Shown here in pieces: positions 42,628-49,003 of a stretch of 64,000 nucleotides of DNA. The notes below the pieces were generated by a model. The model saw only the letters and a program-made list of their open reading frames with translations. It was not told the DNA's origin and searched no databases. Within the stretch, counting starts at the first letter, position 1. Each line of letters opens with the position of its first letter. A program made the translations under genes and the position numbers. This stretch comes from Bdellovibrionales bacterium (lineage in GTDB: Bacteria > Bdellovibrionota > Bdellovibrionia > Bdellovibrionales > JAGQZY01): the NCBI GenBank assembly GCA_043757265.1, contig JAYUQP010000022.1, positions 8,683-72,682 on the forward strand, written 5' to 3'.

Positions 42628-43266
42628 TTGCTACAATTTTCATCACTCTTTTTATCGTTATCATTGTTGTGCACTCAAAGTTTTGCGGCCGACGGGATCG
42701 GGACGAATTCGCAAGGGACTGGAGCGAACGGAATCGACGCGCATATGACCGACGCGCACGGCACGGGCGCACAAACAACCAACGCGCACTGGACGGACGG
42801 GTATGAGCTCACCACCTTGCAAATCAACTTGCTCCTAAAATGGGAAGGCGAACAAAAGTTTGACCACGAAAAACTTGTGGGCTTCGCCAAAAGTTTCGAG
42901 AAGCACAATCTTAAAGCAGAACCCTATGTACCTCCTCACACGTTTGCCGAACTTATCGAAGTATCAGCATGGGCTGAGGGCGCAGCTTTCGCGACATTTG
43001 CTGAATATGCAGGTTACACGTTCGACAACGAGGCCTACAACGCCGCTTGCCCCAACCGTGTGCTGTTTAATTTCGGCTATGCCACAGGCAAGGAATACTT
43101 TCGGGTTGATGTTCTTGTTCAGTACATGAGTCTGTTTGATTCATTGCAAATTACCTATGCACTACATCCTTCGACCTTTCCGCAGAAGTATTTGGAGTTA
43201 GCCAAATCCCGCGGCTTCGACGTGTATTTGAGAACCGCCGTCGAGATGGCGCAAAACTCGTATTAG
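42628..43266 (+). CDS. secreted hypothetical protein (TTG start)
   Basis: AGGGGGCTG lies 2 nt upstream of the TTG. Signal peptide MLQFSSLFLSLSLLCTQSFA/A, followed by a degenerate T(D/N)AH repeat. Confidence 0.45.
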   Translation: MLQFSSLFLSLSLLCTQSFAADGIGTNSQGTGANGIDAHMTDAHGTGAQTTNAHWTDGYELTTLQINLLLKWEGEQKFDHEKLVGFAKSFEKHNLKAEPYVPPHTFAELIEVSAWAEGAAFATFAEYAGYTFDNEAYNAACPNRVLFNFGYATGKEYFRVDVLVQYMSLFDSLQITYALHPSTFPQKYLELAKSRGFDVYLRTAVEMAQNSY

Positions 43267-43583
43267 AGAGTGCGCTGTACTTTAAAGTTGGTTTTCGTCT
43301 GGTTTCAATTGAGAGATACTTTTGTTAACCACAGAGCCAAACGGCGAAAGTACTATATAACCCATCGCGTAGAATTGCCGAGCTAAACACACAGAATTTT
43401 CGAGCTGAAAAGCCAATTCCCCTCAGTTTCTTCAGATTGTAGTCAATTCTAAAAACATTAAAATATTTTCAATTCTCCGCATAGTTTTGAATCATTTGCA
43501 GAGGGTTGGTAACGCATTAACTTATCTAAAATAAGTCAATGTTCGGGGTTTGATTACGGCTTTTTTTATGTTGGGGAATTATC

Positions 43584-46500
43584 ATGAAAGTTCAAAAAAT
43601 ACGCTTTGCAGCCTGTTCGCAATTTCTTTTCTTATTTTTGTTTGCCCAATCATTTGCCGATATCAATGAATCGTCGGCGCTAAAAACCTACAAAGAACGG
43701 CTGCGAGTGATAGAAAACAGCCTTAATCCTGCCGAAATGTACGAGGCGACGAAAGATCTTGTACCAACCAACGAATCTTTCGAAATCCTAAAACAGACCC
43801 TGGCACATCTTCCCGACCGACACAATAACGGCGACTTCGAGAAAGCTTTCAATCCAGAAAATACGATTATGATTCTTCTGGAGGCTTTTGAAAAACATGC
43901 CTCTTCCGTAGACATCGAACTCCTTGCCGATCTCAATCGATGGGCAGATCTTTCCCACCTCGAAGAAGTTGTGCAGCAAAAGATAATTCAAACTGCTATT
44001 TACCTCAAAAATATAAGCTCGGCACGCAAGCTTGTTTCGATGAATACCCTATACCCCTCAAGCGGAATACGCCCTTCCCCGACCACACTTCGCCTTGCAG
44101 GACCAAGTCCACAAAAAATCAGTGATGCACACCAATCCGCATTGATTGAAATTGAGCGCTTTTACCGGAGCATGAAAGATCGCGTTGTTGGACAAGATGA
44201 TATTCTTAAATCCTTCCGCTCCCTTTACATCAGTGACCTTATTAGCGGAGGTCGCCGTATTGAGCCAGAAGTTTTTTATCTGATGGGTCTTCCTGGGAAT
44301 GGCAAAGACACCATCGCCGAGGCCTATATTGATGCTCTTTGGAATATGCGAGACGCTCACGTTTCGCATATGTATCGCATCAACATTCGCACTAAAGAAG
44401 AAGCGTGGAGTTTATTTGGTTCTAGCAAGGGATACGTCGGCTCAGCTGACCTCCCCAGTTTCTTAAAGTTCTTGGTTGAGCACTCGGGCGGTAAATACAT
44501 ATTGGGCAGCGAGGCGACACCTCAAGGGACCCGAACTATTGTCGAAAAAAATACGACATGGAAGGCTGACGAATTCACTTTAAGAGCCCCGTCCCATAAG
44601 GCTGTTATTTTTGTAAACGAAGCTCACAATATCCCTCGTGCAGTAAAGGACAATATTCTCAAACAAGCCATCGAACGTGGTATTTTTCCAATCACCAATC
44701 CAGGCTCCACTCCCAACGCTGTTTCGCAAATTCAACTGCCCGTAACTTTTATCTTCGCATCCAACGAGGGAATTGATCTGCTCGAACCGCGCGAAAAAAA
44801 CGGAGCGCGCCTTGGTAAACCTTTATCCTTTGATCGTTTGCTTGAAAATTATGAACGCGTCTTTAAAGATAAAGAACGCCTGAAACAAGCAATCATGAAG
44901 GGCAATGGCGAGCTCAATAATCCAAATCATCCGGATCAACCAGGAACCTCAGAAGAGTTTCTCAATCGTTTCCCTGACCATCGCGTTCACCTGTTACGTC
45001 CACTCAGCCCAGAAAACCTCCAGCGGATCGCTGAAATATTAATTAAAGCTGAAAGTAACAAACTTAAAAATGCGAGCGGACGCCTTGGACAATACACCGT
45101 CACATTGTCAGAGGAAGCCATTCGCTTTATCACTCAATATGATTCTATTCCTTCTGAAAACTCTCGTCCGATCAAGGCTCGACTGAAAAGTTTTGTCTTT
45201 GATGAAATTTTTCAGGCCATTGAAAGCAAAGAAATTAAACCATCTTCGCTTGTCCAAGATATTTACGTCGACATTCAACTCAATCCGGATGGCTCACGCT
45301 CCGCTCATTTTAAAATCACTGATTCAAATCCAACCTCTTATGAGTTTTGGAGCGTTATCGATCAAACCCTCAAAGATGTTCCCCAGGAACCCTTGTCACG
45401 AGACCGCATAGAGGCAATTTTAAAAATGCGTCAACAAATTCTCGATAATGTGTTCGGTGTTGAACACATCGTCGATAAGCTAATTGAGGCCGCGATTGTT
45501 TCCGAAAGCGAATCACGCAATGCCGGTGAGTCAAAAAGGCCTGCCACGGTGATGGCTTTTTTAGGTAAAACTTCCACTGGAAAAACAGAGACCGCAAAAC
45601 AGTACGTAAAAGCTCGCTATGGAACTCACGAACGGCTTGAAACAATCGACTTCAATGGGATCCGCGATCTCCAAGCGATGAACGCAAGAATTCTTGGCAC
45701 CTTTGATGCGCGAAATAATCCTATCGCCTCAGATTTCATGAAGGCCTACGACCGTGCTCCCGATGGAAATATTGCATTTATCTTTGATGAGGCCGCAAAT
45801 TCACCAAGGGAGTTGTTAAAAGGTCTGTATGAGATTTTGCGAGAACCGGTTGTTTCTGGTTTTTCTGACGGAAAGCCACGTCCCATGAAAAATGTAACTA
45901 TTATTTTGACGGGCAATGCCGGTGAACAAATCTACAACTTGATTCCAAAAGATCTTCCAACCGATGTTTACGAACGCGCCATGCGCGAGGTCTTTCGAAT
46001 TTTCCTGAATAACGCCGACCTCCAGCAACGAATTTTAGCAGAGACTTTCCCAGACGCGTTCATTGCGCGTCTGGGAAATAATGTTTATCATTTCGGCCCC
46101 TTGAAAGACTCAGGCAAGCGGCAAGTGGCGCAGTTGAAACTCCTCAAGGGACTTGAAGGACTAAAGCCTAAAAACAGTGAGCGTGGCTGGAATATGGTCT
46201 TTGCTAAAGAGTCCGATATTTTAGACCTCTTCGACCTTATCGAAAAAGAAGGGTTTAACAGTGCCCACCAGGGCGCCTCGATCGACTCCTTTGTTCGGCT
46301 TTCCATCATTGATAAAATCAAAGCCAAACTGCTGAGTGAAAATGTCGCTAATGGACAAGATGTCATGATTGAAGTTGCGAAAGAATCTATCGTACGGTCC
46401 GACCGCGACGTTTCAAATTCCTTTAGACACATGAAAATTATCACCGAAGCTGGTCAAGAATTTATCGTCGAAATCCCAATTTCGAAAAGAACGACTTCGA

Positions 46501-47624
46501 TGGCGGTTAGCGACGTGGATCGAATTTTAACGGCCTATCACGAAGTGGGCCATGAGATTGTTTCAGAAGTTTATTTTGGTGATCGCGTACGCCCGAAATA
46601 TATTTCGATCATCGAAGGCGTGACTCTTATTGGAGCTTCCTTTGTCCACTACGCAGGAATCCGCGTCGGGCAACCCCTTTCCGCCGGTCCGCGCACAAAA
46701 CAGGTTGTTCTTCGCGAAGCTGCTGTTTTGTATGGTGGCTATGTGGCCCAGCAGCTGGTTACGATAGGAGGTCGTCATGACTCTGGGAAAAAGAATGATT
46801 TCCATCGTGCCACACGACTTATTCAAAATGCCATTCTTCGCGATGGACTCTCGGACGAGTGGGGGAAAAGGTCCATTCCAGACAACGTAAAAACTGGCGA
46901 CTACATTGATCAAGAACTTTCTCCCGAGGAAAAAGCCAAACTCAATCACATCACAGATCGTTGGATGAGCTACGCTGAGCAATTTGCACGCGAAGCTTTA
47001 TATGTGAACATGGATCGACTTTTTGTGGTTCTCGGCAAGCGTCTTTCGGAAAAAGGTTTCCTAGATCAAAAAGCAATTTCTGAAATTCACGATCGATTTT
47101 CTCCGGTCACTGAAAGAACAGTAGACTTTGCCGGCAAATTAGATGAAGTGCGCAAAGTCATCGCACTTATTGAGCAGAGCGGGGCTAACGTAGGATCGGT
47201 TCTTGAAAACAAATTCCGCACAAGAGCCTACAGCGTTGATAACGCCCACGAGGCCTTTAACCTAGTAATGAAAGCGTCGAGGAAAGCAGGTTTATTTGAA
47301 AAAGTCCGTACGTACTTTTTTCCTCCCTGGGATAAATTGACGGAGCTTCAAAAAACTGTTGCGGCCTCTTACCTTGGAAACAAAATATCTGATTTGAGTC
47401 GTGATGCACGCATCGCCGGCGAATACTGGATGCCAGAATCTGTTGCCAACATTGATGAAATCATCAAAGAAGAGCGCCTTCGCGAAACTCGTCCCGTCAC
47501 TGATTTAGCTCGCTTTGAAATCTTAAAACAAGATTTAATGGTTTCGGAAGAGACCATCGAAGACATTCAAAGATCAGTCACCCAAAAATCAACAGCGGCG
47601 CTTTCTTGTAAAAACATTTTCTGA
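43584..47624 (+). CDS. fusion protein: export-type N-terminus, two Clp/Hsp100 D2-type AAA+ modules and a C-terminal FtsH-type M41 zinc peptidase
   Basis: 1346 aa. Module 1 has 'GLPGNGKD' and 'IFVNEAH' (degenerate Walker A/B). Module 2 has 'GKTSTGKT' and 'FIFDEA' (canonical). The C-terminus 'TAYHEVGHEIV...ISIIEGVTLIG...LYGGYVAQQLV...KKNDFHRATRLIQNAI' parallels FtsH M41. Confidence 0.8.
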   Translation: MKVQKIRFAACSQFLFLFLFAQSFADINESSALKTYKERLRVIENSLNPAEMYEATKDLVPTNESFEILKQTLAHLPDRHNNGDFEKAFNPENTIMILLEAFEKHASSVDIELLADLNRWADLSHLEEVVQQKIIQTAIYLKNISSARKLVSMNTLYPSSGIRPSPTTLRLAGPSPQKISDAHQSALIEIERFYRSMKDRVVGQDDILKSFRSLYISDLISGGRRIEPEVFYLMGLPGNGKDTIAEAYIDALWNMRDAHVSHMYRINIRTKEEAWSLFGSSKGYVGSADLPSFLKFLVEHSGGKYILGSEATPQGTRTIVEKNTTWKADEFTLRAPSHKAVIFVNEAHNIPRAVKDNILKQAIERGIFPITNPGSTPNAVSQIQLPVTFIFASNEGIDLLEPREKNGARLGKPLSFDRLLENYERVFKDKERLKQAIMKGNGELNNPNHPDQPGTSEEFLNRFPDHRVHLLRPLSPENLQRIAEILIKAESNKLKNASGRLGQYTVTLSEEAIRFITQYDSIPSENSRPIKARLKSFVFDEIFQAIESKEIKPSSLVQDIYVDIQLNPDGSRSAHFKITDSNPTSYEFWSVIDQTLKDVPQEPLSRDRIEAILKMRQQILDNVFGVEHIVDKLIEAAIVSESESRNAGESKRPATVMAFLGKTSTGKTETAKQYVKARYGTHERLETIDFNGIRDLQAMNARILGTFDARNNPIASDFMKAYDRAPDGNIAFIFDEAANSPRELLKGLYEILREPVVSGFSDGKPRPMKNVTIILTGNAGEQIYNLIPKDLPTDVYERAMREVFRIFLNNADLQQRILAETFPDAFIARLGNNVYHFGPLKDSGKRQVAQLKLLKGLEGLKPKNSERGWNMVFAKESDILDLFDLIEKEGFNSAHQGASIDSFVRLSIIDKIKAKLLSENVANGQDVMIEVAKESIVRSDRDVSNSFRHMKIITEAGQEFIVEIPISKRTTSMAVSDVDRILTAYHEVGHEIVSEVYFGDRVRPKYISIIEGVTLIGASFVHYAGIRVGQPLSAGPRTKQVVLREAAVLYGGYVAQQLVTIGGRHDSGKKNDFHRATRLIQNAILRDGLSDEWGKRSIPDNVKTGDYIDQELSPEEKAKLNHITDRWMSYAEQFAREALYVNMDRLFVVLGKRLSEKGFLDQKAISEIHDRFSPVTERTVDFAGKLDEVRKVIALIEQSGANVGSVLENKFRTRAYSVDNAHEAFNLVMKASRKAGLFEKVRTYFFPPWDKLTELQKTVAASYLGNKISDLSRDARIAGEYWMPESVANIDEIIKEERLRETRPVTDLARFEILKQDLMVSEETIEDIQRSVTQKSTAALSCKNIF

Positions 47625-47761
47625 GTTTGTGTGTTTTACGTTGCGCCTAGCTCATCATCCAAAATGAGCTAAATAAAAAATGGCACCGTTGCTACCTTGA
47701 GGACGGTACGACTCAACGACATTGGAACAAGGGGTGCGAAAACACACAATTCTTTGTTGCC

Positions 47762-49003
47762 TTAAGGTACGTAAGCTATGGTGTTTCTCGTGGTGTAACC
47801 TAAATCAGTGCATGCCGTGACATAAATTGAAGCCATAAAGCGATTTGTCGTCGGATTCCAACATCTGTACAAGGGTTTAGTCGCGAACAAAGTGGCAACG
47901 GTGGATGCGTATCCGATCAAGCTTGCCGTTTCCGTCGTTGAATTACAGCCCGTTGCAATCCGAGTATTTTTAGTTGTATTTATTTGACAGTTAAAAAGAG
48001 CCGTCGAATTTTGCGGTAGCGCCTGGTTGTAAGCTCGAAAGCTTATAGTCTCTGCTACATAAAGGACAGGAGTCGCCGCTCCGTCAGGCAAAAACAGATA
48101 AAATTTTGAAGCCGGGTTTTGAAACTTTCGGATGTTTCTTTGACCTGTGGGAGCAGCGCCGGCTATTTGGTAAGGCTTAGGTCCGTACATTTGATAGACG
48201 TATCGTTTGTCCTCAGAACTTAATGCTCCTCTCACTGTAACCGCTGTTCCGATAATATCATCGTATTGGCCACTGGGAGTAAATATCGTTTGCAAGCCCG
48301 GTTTAGAGCCACTGTTTTTAGTGTAATGCATAATTGAATAATAATCGTAGGGGCCCGACCGAGTTATTTCTATAGCGCTATAAATGTCGAATGCCGCAAT
48401 CGACTCGGTTCGAACATTGTTGAATTCAACTCGAATATAGCTATTGCGGTCTGGTCTTGCATGTTCGTGAATAAGGCCAAGTAAATGGCCGAATTCGTGT
48501 TGGATGATGCCACCATTAGGTGCCGTAAAACAACGGGCCGGATCTAAATTTATGTACGCAACGTTTGTTGTCGTTTTAAACCCATAGGTCGAACTGCAAC
48601 GACCGGTTTCACGAAAAATGTATACGATCGGTGTTGGTTCAGAGCTCTGCCATCCTGCTGACACGATACATTTTAAATTGGCCCACTTAGCCCATGCATT
48701 ACAGGCGGCAATAATCGTCGTTCGCTCAGCTGAAGTAAACTCACTGTGAATCCACATTCGTACTTCGCCGTTAGGCCACCTTGGTGCTGTGGCGAGTTTT
48801 GCTTTACCATCGAGGCCAGTTTGGTTTTCATCAAAGATGTACATATCGTCGCCGACAAGAGTCGTTCCTATTTGTTGCTCTGCAAGGCCCATCGAACCAG
48901 CAATCGACGAAGTCGTCGCATCTCTCCCACAATTGTTAAAGAGCGGAAAAAAAACGAAGCTGAAACCAGCCATCAGCATGACAAGTATGTTTTTCTTATG
49001 CAT
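47762..49003 (-). CDS. astacin-family (M12A) zinc metalloprotease lipoprotein with a C-terminal repeat domain
   Basis: Lipobox-like FPLFNN/CGRD. 'HEFGHLLGLIHEHARPDRNSYI' is the astacin HExxHxxGxxHE signature and 'YYSIMHY' is the Met-turn. The C-terminal ~150 aa has three 'YR.(W/Y)N...' repeats. Confidence 0.85.
   Translation of the reverse strand: MHKKNILVMLMAGFSFVFFPLFNNCGRDATTSSIAGSMGLAEQQIGTTLVGDDMYIFDENQTGLDGKAKLATAPRWPNGEVRMWIHSEFTSAERTTIIAACNAWAKWANLKCIVSAGWQSSEPTPIVYIFRETGRCSSTYGFKTTTNVAYINLDPARCFTAPNGGIIQHEFGHLLGLIHEHARPDRNSYIRVEFNNVRTESIAAFDIYSAIEITRSGPYDYYSIMHYTKNSGSKPGLQTIFTPSGQYDDIIGTAVTVRGALSSEDKRYVYQMYGPKPYQIAGAAPTGQRNIRKFQNPASKFYLFLPDGAATPVLYVAETISFRAYNQALPQNSTALFNCQINTTKNTRIATGCNSTTETASLIGYASTVATLFATKPLYRCWNPTTNRFMASIYVTACTDLGYTTRNTIAYVP

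Follow-up and report, generated by a model that had tools for sequence, protein, structure and literature searches.

A 1346-residue protein of Bdellovibrionota with a predicted Sec-type signal peptide, two Clp/Hsp100 NBD2-type AAA+ modules and an FtsH-type M41 protease

FtsH unites a classic-clade AAA module with an M41 protease, and Clp D2-type modules usually use a separate ClpP. In a window of 64,000 nucleotides from a Bdellovibrionales bacterium (the whole stretch of DNA that was analyzed), the original prediction described one ORF that places two D2-type modules and an M41 domain behind an export-type leader. The locus raises the question of what this protein is and where it would work. 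The design is undescribed. Its interest is that an ATP-driven motor would not be looked for beyond the cytoplasm; neither the bacterial periplasm nor the extracellular space is known to contain an ATP pool. Literature searches found no AAA+ protease that bacteria export, and we know of none.

The ORF scan of the window returned this gene as a single unbroken frame of 1346 amino acid residues and a stop. It encodes, in this order, a Sec-type signal peptide, a HEAT-like N-domain, two Clp/Hsp100 NBD2-type AAA+ modules, an M41 protease and a C-terminal tail. This is the domain order that had been predicted, and all of the motifs quoted with it were located, at the residues given below. The features are as follows:
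43267..43583, + strand: upstream intergenic region, 317 bp, 36.9 % GC
43573-43577, + strand: Shine-Dalgarno-like GGGGA, 6 nt 5' of the ATG
43584..47624, + strand: whole ORF, 1346 aa, stand-alone gene
43584..43658, + strand: predicted Sec-type signal peptide, residues 1-25
43659..44168, + strand: HEAT/ARM-like, all-helical N-domain, residues 26-195, poorly conserved
44169..45353, + strand: AAA+ module 1, Clp/Hsp100 NBD2 type, residues 196-590, atypical nucleotide site
45354..46463, + strand: AAA+ module 2, Clp/Hsp100 NBD2 type, residues 591-960, canonical ATP site
46464..47093, + strand: M41 zinc-peptidase domain, FtsH-type, residues 961-1170, PF01434
47094..47531, + strand: C-terminal helical region, residues 1171-1316, weakly conserved, Ka/Ks 0.084
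47532..47621, + strand: disordered tail, residues 1317-1346, ending S-C1342-K-N-I-F-COOH

The source assembly is fragmented (133 contigs, sediment metagenome), which would favor an artefact, be it a chimera made during assembly, a spurious leader produced by a wrongly called start, or a fusion in decay. The chance of this is negligible. In two runs, one contig of 17,122 bases at ∼28x spanned positions 43000-47910, and with them the whole gene, with zero variants. About 80 full-length homologues and 114 cluster representatives (E ≤ 1e-30, among 1.84 billion) were retrieved, the architecture is complete in some 100 sequence clusters and 32 of the sampled genomes, and an 87 %-identical orthologue was intact in three independent assemblies. 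Relative to this orthologue, Ka/Ks ranged from 0.02 to 0.14 across all regions, the leader included; all parts of the protein are under strong purifying selection, and the presence of a leader is retained across the family.

The upstream gap is AT-rich, as had been claimed (36.9 % GC versus 44.9 % within the gene). In a consensus promoter scan, the + strand of the gap showed no site of the sigma-70 type, and the total count did not exceed that of shuffled sequence. The neighbors named in the original prediction were both present, namely an upstream 212-aa ORF with a signal-like N-terminus and no Pfam match, and a convergent astacin gene downstream, but neither is conserved with the gene, be it at any of 17 other loci or next to the 87 %-identical orthologue. 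No other conserved neighbor was found. The gene stands alone, without a conserved partner gene.

To determine the identity of the domains, the protein was compared with Pfam and NCBIfam models, solved structures and its own AlphaFold2 model. Peptidase_M41 (PF01434) matched residues 974-1168 at 52.6 bits, above the cut-off of 29.9. Two AAA_2 matches and a ClpB_D2-small match had also been expected; AAA_2 was found only once and below threshold (residues 653-785, 18.4 bits versus 27), and ClpB_D2-small was likewise sub-threshold (residues 474-555, 16.5 bits versus 21.9). Assignment of both modules to the D2 type was nevertheless backed by a whole-protein sequence search of solved structures, which matched the D2 of ClpB at 598-947 (E 1e-9) and NBD2 of Hsp104 at 164-296 (E 4e-7), by a profile of module 1, which matched only NBD2 of ClpE, CLPB, Hsp104, ClpC and ClpB (E 2e-9 to 1e-5) and scored ≤5 bits against D1 stretches, and by alignment of the model. 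The model of residues 190-1346 (pLDDT 88.4, pTM 0.70) aligned in Foldseek over 750-850 columns with the two-tier protomers of ClpC, ClpB and ClpA (E 1e-18 to 1e-14; TM-score ∼0.55, normalized by target length).

These likenesses did not place the protein in a characterized family. As in FtsH, an AAA+ motor and an M41 zinc protease with a shared HExxH and Asp ligand lie within one polypeptide, and threading into a chamber is presumed for both. FtsH, however, has one classic-clade module where two NBD2-type modules stand here, and a periplasmic domain between two transmembrane helices where a cleavable-type signal peptide stands here; the 1346-aa protein also carries a C-terminal Cys tag. PF00004 gave no Pfam match to it, and the FtsH_fam model (TIGR01241) reached 43.6 bits against a cut-off of 600, covering 966-1163 only; membership in FtsH (TIGR01241/PRK10733) was rejected on these scores and on the lack of a two-helix anchor. 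With the class-I Clp/Hsp100 proteins (ClpA, ClpC, ClpB and Hsp104) it shares a two-tier protomer, superposable over ∼800 columns, and the D2 motifs, namely the VVGQ start, GYVG (module 1), the Arg finger in FLNR, the sensor-2 RP and D2-small. It differs from them in that neither tier is a classic D1 and each is of the NBD2 type, in that a metalloprotease is fused in cis instead of a separate serine protease ClpP, and in that GK-D-T and N-E replace the usual Walker motifs of module 1. No coiled-coil M-domain was seen between the Walker motifs in the secondary structure of the model. Clp_N gave no Pfam match, and the N-domain has only a HEAT/ARM-like fold (Z ∼9), with which a remote relation is still compatible. 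The ClpB (TIGR03346) and ClpA (TIGR02639) models scored 64.7 and 33.2 bits against cut-offs of 1232 and 993, and class-I membership was rejected: two tiers are present, but no D1-type module, and the scores fall below the family cut-offs. The claim that the architecture fits no characterized family thus agrees with the FtsH and Clp/Hsp100 scores (44-65 bits versus cut-offs of 600-1232); literature searches found neither a characterized family nor a paper on this one, and none of the homologue annotations was informative.

To our knowledge, no well-known NBD2-like AAA+ proteins other than torsins are made with a signal peptide and are active in a secretory compartment. Torsins are animal ER-lumenal proteins with a non-canonical Walker A (GKN), a single module and no protease, and the ER contains ATP. 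The Torsin model (PF06309) matched residues 612-679 only, at 19.7 bits versus a cut-off of 27; membership was rejected, and torsins serve as an analogy only.

In the family alignment, with the register of the catalytic residues verified on ClpB D2 and FtsH from the same genome, K241, D242, N394, K667, E736, N778, R829, H986, E987, H990 and D1072 were invariant, and N345, E346, R462 and D735 were near-invariant (at least 90 % of members). Module 1 has the Walker A GLPGNGKDT (residues 235-243), the Walker B IFVNEAH (342-348), a GYVG pore loop with Y284, sensor-1 N394, Arg finger R462, a family-specific hairpin insert at ∼296-340 and a D2-small domain (474-555) carrying sensor-2 R528. It had been called degenerate, a pseudo-ATPase, and this was overstated: the GK-D-T and N-E changes are paired, K241, E346, N394, R462, R528 and Y284 are kept, and Ka/Ks (0.029) is equally low in module 2. 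The nucleotide site of module 1 seems to be atypical but conserved rather than decayed. Module 2 has the Walker A GKTSTGKTE (661-669, K667-T668), the Walker B FIFDEAA (732-738, D735-E736), sensor-1 N778 and Arg finger R829. Its description as canonical holds for this ATP site but not beyond it, since NPIxSDFMK takes the place of GYVG in the pore loop, and the sensor-2 motif reads GAS, not GAR. The M41 assignment stood in full, with HEVGH at 986-990 and KKNDFHRAT at 1069-1077, in which H986, E987, H990 and the third ligand D1072 aligned with the genome's own FtsH.

These residues bear on whether the AAA+ rings, if exported, would use ATP at all. They might instead act passively, as the scaffold, holdase or gate of a zinc protease in the periplasm or outside the cell, a reading that accommodates a periplasm without known ATP, the non-canonical Walker motifs of module 1, and the missing GYVG tyrosine and sensor-2 Arg of module 2. 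It is improbable, given that in sequences of only 27-30 % identity both modules keep the Walker A Lys, Walker B Glu, sensor-1 Asn and Arg finger without exception or nearly so, with Ka/Ks of 0.02-0.03, a pattern hardly expected unless nucleotide is bound and hydrolyzed.

The leader has an n-region with K2, K5 and R7, a hydrophobic core, and S-F-A before D26. Residues 8-25 form the only hydrophobic stretch, with a signal-peptide layout, and a soluble helical domain comes next. Signal peptides were called with an in-house heuristic rather than SignalP, based on charge layout, an uncharged stretch and a small-x-small site. By this measure, 64 of 79 family members show positive charges, then 15-22 uncharged residues that end in a small-x-small site, and then acidic residues; the remainder are mostly 5'-truncated calls. 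The predicted signal peptide is a family trait, and the original view of an export-type leader, as opposed to a two-helix FtsH anchor, was borne out across the family. In the relatives P0056 and P0247, apparent lipobox-type leaders are found instead.

The same stretch could serve as an uncleaved N-out/C-in anchor of a cytoplasmic quality-control protease at the inner membrane, which would match FtsH in function but have a single helix and a stronger motor of two rings. Conserved ATPase residues need ATP, which is available only in the cytoplasm; FtsH, the sole other type of M41 protease, is tethered to the membrane and has its domains in the cytoplasm; and the genome has just one ordinary FtsH. 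This placement is still considered unlikely. The positive-inside rule opposes it: in most members the N-terminal flank is net positive, and the first 12 residues behind the hydrophobic stretch are acidic or neutral. At a median of ∼18 residues, with the polar c-region counted in, the uncharged stretch would make a short membrane span, most members have the small-x-small cleavage motif, and some relatives have apparent lipoboxes. Moreover, a Cys-free body and a tag common to typical extracytoplasmic enzymes fit export.

As for this tag, C1342 is the sole Cys of the mature protein and an invariant column, in a tail with pLDDT <50. Exactly one Cys was found in the last 25 residues of 76/76 full-length members, as C-x-x-x-L/F, followed by 4-12 residues across members, while the body lacked any Cys in 58/76 (Cys frequency 0.024 % in family bodies versus 1.06 % in the genome's ORFs). 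The tag ends 11 of the 995 signal-peptide ORFs of the genome, against 28 of 18,953 internal windows (p 4e-7). A motif-free test gave 27 observed versus 12 expected among signal-peptide ORFs (p 5e-5), and no excess of C-terminal Cys among ORFs without a signal peptide. The carriers, all of them signal-peptide ORFs, include a 5'-nucleotidase-like protein, a trypsin-like protein and a predicted amidoligase; the first two types are typically periplasmic or secreted, and the amidoligase family is ATP-dependent. The tag is also conserved in an unrelated Amidoligase_2 family at 37-77 % identity. It may be a sorting, attachment or modification signal common to a few exported enzymes. It resembles MYXO-CTERM and kindred signals in placing an invariant Cys near the C-terminus of signal-peptide proteins of many unrelated families in one lineage. 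CTERM sorting signals are tripartite, with a motif, a transmembrane helix and an Arg-rich cluster (Haft, 2023), whereas neither helix nor basic cluster follows the Cys here. It also differs from CaaX, which has three residues after the Cys and not at least four. Because signal peptide, Cys depletion and shared tag coincide, we infer that the protein is exported out of the producer's cytoplasm.

AAA+ and protease pairs occur in anti-phage defence systems, and the gene might belong to such a system or to a mobile element. As a lead only, look-alikes of 581-722 aa with M41 and ClpB_D2-small in the ESM Atlas are mostly labeled Uroviricota, and the AAA domains of DolB and PDC-M37B gave weak PADLOC matches. 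These PADLOC-DB 2.0 matches are partial and of a generic AAA nature (DolB 31.7 bits over 600-677, PDC-M37B 16.8 bits), and no partner genes are conserved beside this gene. We know of no defence system that features signal peptides and Cys tags. A defence role is accordingly a very remote prospect.

With middling confidence, we favor an ATP-dependent protease that is exported and self-compartmentalized and that probably acts at a place supplied with prey ATP. By analogy with Clp/Hsp100 unfoldases and FtsH, it would assemble as a hexamer. The N-domain (pLDDT 89, Ka/Ks 0.055) had zero Foldseek matches at E ≤ 0.001, and VIA-align returned generic alpha-solenoids only; it is presumed to bind substrate or adaptor and would select substrates. 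ATP hydrolysis would be carried out by module 2, with its canonical Walker A/B, sensor 1 and Arg finger, while module 1, with its atypical conserved site and GYVG tyrosine, would grip and thread the polypeptide; given that module 2 lacks the pore-loop tyrosine and the sensor-2 Arg, this division of labor is a guess. The unfolded chain would enter the fused M41 chamber directly, so that a separate ClpP would not be needed. Since a conserved ATPase requires ATP, the protein would act in a compartment beyond the producer cell that contains ATP, and both the conserved full catalytic set of module 2 and the tagged predicted amidoligase point to such a destination. In a Bdellovibrio-like predator it might be the prey cytoplasm or a leaky bdelloplast, where prey proteins would be unfolded and digested; this prey site is the most speculative part of the proposal.

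Among the sampled genomes, the family occurred in Bdellovibrionota only, in 32 of 401 genomes of the phylum, and it was not found in any of the 26 genomes (3.3-4.0 Mb) of one well-sampled genus. The distribution is patchy, and a core function in predation is therefore rejected. The source itself is an uncultured sediment genome, and its predatory lifestyle is assumed from relatives. Three-AAA + M41 relatives from the same phylum (among them P0083, 1469 aa, and P0084, 1251 aa) match module 2 and M41 (E 1e-17 to 1e-28) and also have a signal peptide, a Clp-type stack, D2-small, M41 and the Cys tag. They differ in an extra D1-like (PF00004) module, which has canonical Walker motifs, and they are a separate, equally uncharacterized family.

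The reading frame at 43584-47624 on the forward strand of the window is a single open frame of 1346 codons, and every motif quoted in the original prediction was found where it had been placed. The features around the frame are as follows:

Upstream gap, 317 bp, 36.9 % GC, immediately 5' of the frame
GGGGA element, 6 nt 5' of the ATG
42628-43266, ORF of 212 aa with a signal-like start and no Pfam match
47762-49003, minus strand, convergent astacin gene (PF01400, E 7e-32), 3' of the frame

The window derives from a sediment metagenome, and region 43000-47910 was covered by one 17,122-base contig at ∼28x with zero variants in two sequencing runs; the gene was also present as identical pieces in two more runs, and no RNA data set was among the runs listed. 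Ka/Ks values of 0.02-0.14 were obtained in every segment against the orthologue P0002 (87 % identity), which is intact in three assemblies (L113-L115). P0002 has an Asp/Glu racemase on one side and a gene of the histone-deacetylase family on the other, a neighbourhood wholly unlike that of the window, so either the gene has changed place or the DNA around it has been reshuffled. No conserved neighbours were found, the surroundings differing in all 18 loci compared. The 1346-aa ORF is a stand-alone gene, and the operon-based inference was dropped because of this lack of conserved neighbours: the 212-aa and astacin genes, which had been offered as context, are not conserved beside family members. 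The leader of the astacin resembles a signal peptide or that of a lipoprotein; the protein contains many cysteines and ends without the lone-cysteine tail of the 1346-aa protein. In the phylum scan, a family member with an in-frame TAA inside the match was seen at G375:C19:228753-232292; the TAA may stem from an error in sequencing, or the copy may be broken.

Of the Pfam domains expected in the product, Peptidase_M41 (974-1168, 52.6 bits) was the only one above the cut-off, while AAA_2 (653-785) and ClpB_D2-small (474-555) were recovered as sub-threshold matches. In NCBIfam, the D2 domains of ClpB, ClpV and ClpA aligned to residues ∼598-936 and the FtsH model to 966-1163, all far under the family cut-offs. 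When the sequences of solved structures were searched, residues 598-947 resembled ClpB D2 and residues 164-296 resembled Hsp104 NBD2. A profile of module 1 (residues 196-590) built from 37 family members matched solely second nucleotide-binding domains, namely those of ClpE, CLPB/Skd3, Hsp104, ClpC and ClpB. Based on these matches, both AAA+ modules are of the D2/NBD2 type, in agreement with the original prediction. The AlphaFold2 model of residues 190-1346 was confident (pLDDT 88.4, pTM 0.70) and superposed on two-tier ClpC, ClpB and ClpA protomers over ∼800 columns. Residues 26-205 were predicted, also confidently, as an all-helical repeat fold, for which fold searches returned generic HEAT/ARM-like alpha-solenoid likeness only.

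The two modules were aligned to the ClpB D2 of the same genome, and conservation was read from the family alignment:

Walker A: module 1, K241 retained and D242 at the Thr/Ser position; module 2, canonical GKT with K667 and T668
Walker B: module 1, E346 retained and N345 in place of Asp; module 2, canonical D735 and E736
Sensor 1: module 1, N394; module 2, N778
Arg finger: module 1, R462; module 2, R829
Sensor 2: module 1, R528 retained; module 2, GAS instead of the GAR arginine
Pore loop: module 1, GYVG tyrosine Y284 retained; module 2, NPIxSDFMK
44307-44309, codon of D242, an invariant Asp at the Walker A Thr/Ser position
44616-44618, codon of N345, Asn in place of the Walker B Asp, retained by at least 90 % of members

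In module 1 an acidic side chain appears, from the alignment, to have left the Walker B motif for Walker A, and looks like a metal-binding carboxylate that has changed position. Since this D242/N345 change looks paired and selected, and not like decay, the label of pseudo-ATPase that had been given to module 1 is not established; the swap would be a natural experiment on P-loop magnesium coordination. The two rings look specialised; ATP hydrolysis would fall mainly to module 2, and gripping of the substrate mainly to module 1. In the M41 domain, the HEAGH motif and the Asp of ND..RAT are invariant in the family and align with FtsH; where FtsH has the Glu of its AEE motif, the query has Gln and other members retain Glu. 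By analogy with the established mechanisms of Clp and FtsH, the protein would form a hexamer in which substrates are threaded through both rings and on into a built-in chamber of the zinc protease.

A word-indexed search retrieved ∼80 full-length homologues of 1250-1430 aa with identities from 87 % to 30 %, which are named, where at all, 'hypothetical' or 'ClpA', and whose hosts are Bdellovibrionales or Bdellovibrionota. An exhaustive HMMER search of 1.84 billion cluster representatives gave 114 at E <= 1e-30, and nearly all non-truncated matches equalled the query in length and aligned end to end. The distribution is patchy: the full-length gene was found in 32 of the 401 genomes of the phylum and only a more distant relative in 18 others, with none in the 26 genomes of one well-sampled genus. 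None was found at E <= 1e-30 in the 301 genomes searched of Myxococcota, the phylum of a Polyangiaceae genome. An HExxH scan of genome contigs returned mostly ordinary FtsH and, among the matches listed, one true relative (L004), which belongs to the same phylum sample. In the ESM Atlas the query falls in a 68-member cluster labelled Bdellovibrionota, and PADLOC and PHROGs gave generic AAA or protease matches only. The genome of the window carries a single copy; it also has an ordinary FtsH gene and one that resembles ClpB. The gene, which is intact, under selection and restricted to one lineage, fuses two AAA+ modules of the NBD2 type to an M41 peptidase, with a signal-peptide-like leader and a lone-cysteine tail. 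The view that this architecture lies outside characterised families held, as no describing paper or curated family was found in NCBIfam or in literature with few subscription journals. The parts are known; the combination of two NBD2-type rings with an M41 chamber, and its predicted location, are to our knowledge undescribed, and we place the family among the single-chain AAA+ proteases as a further variety.

The export-type leader proposed for the query proved to be a family feature: by an in-house heuristic, 64 of 79 members have a positive n-region, 15-22 uncharged residues, a small-x-small site and then acidic residues, and the other 15 are mostly truncated gene calls. In the relatives P0056 and P0247 a lipobox-like sequence (L-I-S-C and V-G-A-C) appears to take the place of the signal-peptidase-I site in the leader, which suggests that some members are lipoproteins. 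Under the positive-inside rule, the charge layout of the leader would leave most of the protein on the far side of the inner membrane from the cytoplasm. All bacterial AAA+ proteases known to us (ClpXP, ClpAP, Lon, HslUV, FtsH) act in the cytoplasm. The main rival reading is a membrane-anchored FtsH analogue that faces the cytoplasm, where the ATP requirement would be satisfied; the charge layout, length and cleavage motif of the leader speak against it, as do the kinds of protein that share the cysteine tag.

This tag (S-C-K-N-I-F in the query, 47604-47621, forward strand) contains C1342, an invariant column of the family alignment. In each of the 76 full-length members the final 25 residues contain a single Cys, set in C-x-x-x-L/F, and the body of ∼1250 residues has none in 58 of them (body frequency 0.024 %, against 1.06 % in the ORFs of the genome). 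Across the genome of the window, the motif C-x-x-[ILVMF]-F occurred in the last 14 residues of 11/995 signal-peptide-like ORFs, in 28/18,953 internal windows (excess at ORF ends, p 4e-7) and at the end of 4/1656 ORFs without a signal peptide. In a motif-free test, a single mature Cys in the last 16 residues was observed in 27 signal-peptide ORFs against 12 expected (p 5e-5), and ORFs without a signal peptide had no excess of C-terminal lone Cys. A lone Cys followed by x-x-[ILV]-F closes some 10-15 signal-peptide proteins of the genome that are unrelated to one another, including 5'-nucleotidase-like, FAD-oxidoreductase, trypsin-like, Amidoligase_2 and DUF7790 proteins. The tag-carrier loci (L118-L127) in the window's own genome, G000, are:

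G000 C15:201-1850
G000 C31:23311-24714
G000 C35:12685-14169
G000 C53:19915-20778
G000 C67:53508-54635
G000 C88:2-673
G000 C89:55213-56382
G000 C91:91753-92898
G000 C119:1491-2522
G000 C124:40792-41973, minus strand, Amidoligase_2 protein (L127)

In Bdellovibrionales, the signal peptide and lone-Cys tag of the Amidoligase_2 protein were kept in 26 homologues (P0256-P0281, 37-77 % identity), and the sole Cys of the L127 family always lies within the C-terminal C-x-x-[ILV]-[FL] motif; L127 is predicted to be an ATP-using enzyme. A 'cysteine switch', in which the tail Cys caps the M41 zinc, was rejected as the principal account, since enzymes that are not metalloproteases end in this tag too. The CTERM signals with a Cys that are known have three parts, among them a transmembrane helix and an Arg cluster (Haft 2023), whereas the lone-Cys tag has neither. 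Judged from its sequence pattern, the tag is a candidate C-terminal sorting or modification signal; no describing paper or curated family was found in a literature search that was thin on subscription journals. It may represent a new signal for protein sorting and thereby provide a list of candidate effectors of predation.

Given the leader, the cysteine depletion and the cohort of tagged proteins, we infer that the protein is exported and then sorted or modified via its C-terminal Cys. As the ATPase residues are conserved, the exported protein might, speculatively, act where ATP exists outside the producer; in the case of a predator, this site would lie in the cytoplasm of the prey or in a leaky bdelloplast. 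It is possible, if rather unlikely, that a Bdellovibrio-like clade secretes a complete ATP-dependent unfoldase-protease together with other tagged cofactor-dependent enzymes, that the tag labels them as cargo for an undescribed route of sorting or delivery into prey (e.g., by a thiol-linked tether or lipid modification), and that prey ATP drives the dismantling of the prey proteome. If the export marks are real, then either proteins are degraded with ATP beyond the cell that makes the enzyme, or prey cells receive a motorised protease by injection from the predator; both outcomes would be relevant to how Bdellovibrio-like predators gain access to the prey cytoplasm and digest it. The significance would be much greater if the protein were confirmed to be exported or to act in prey.

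Relatives with three AAA modules and M41 share the signal peptide and the C-terminal Cys tag with the query family. They were seen in a second family of larger proteins in the same phylum (1250-2330 aa; P0083, P0084, P0223-P0255; for example, G208:C6:324199-326331 and G172:C5:717089-719233), composed of a signal peptide, a D1-like AAA, Clp D2-type AAA modules, M41 and a Cys tail; its matches to the query cover module 2 plus M41, with E values from 1e-17 to 1e-62. Clusters of the ESM Atlas with M41, ClpB_D2-small and AAA (581-722 aa, mostly labelled Uroviricota), or with AAA and M41, some also with AAA_2 (787-902 aa; Campylobacterota, Pseudomonadota), may be single-ring Clp-type M41 fusions elsewhere.
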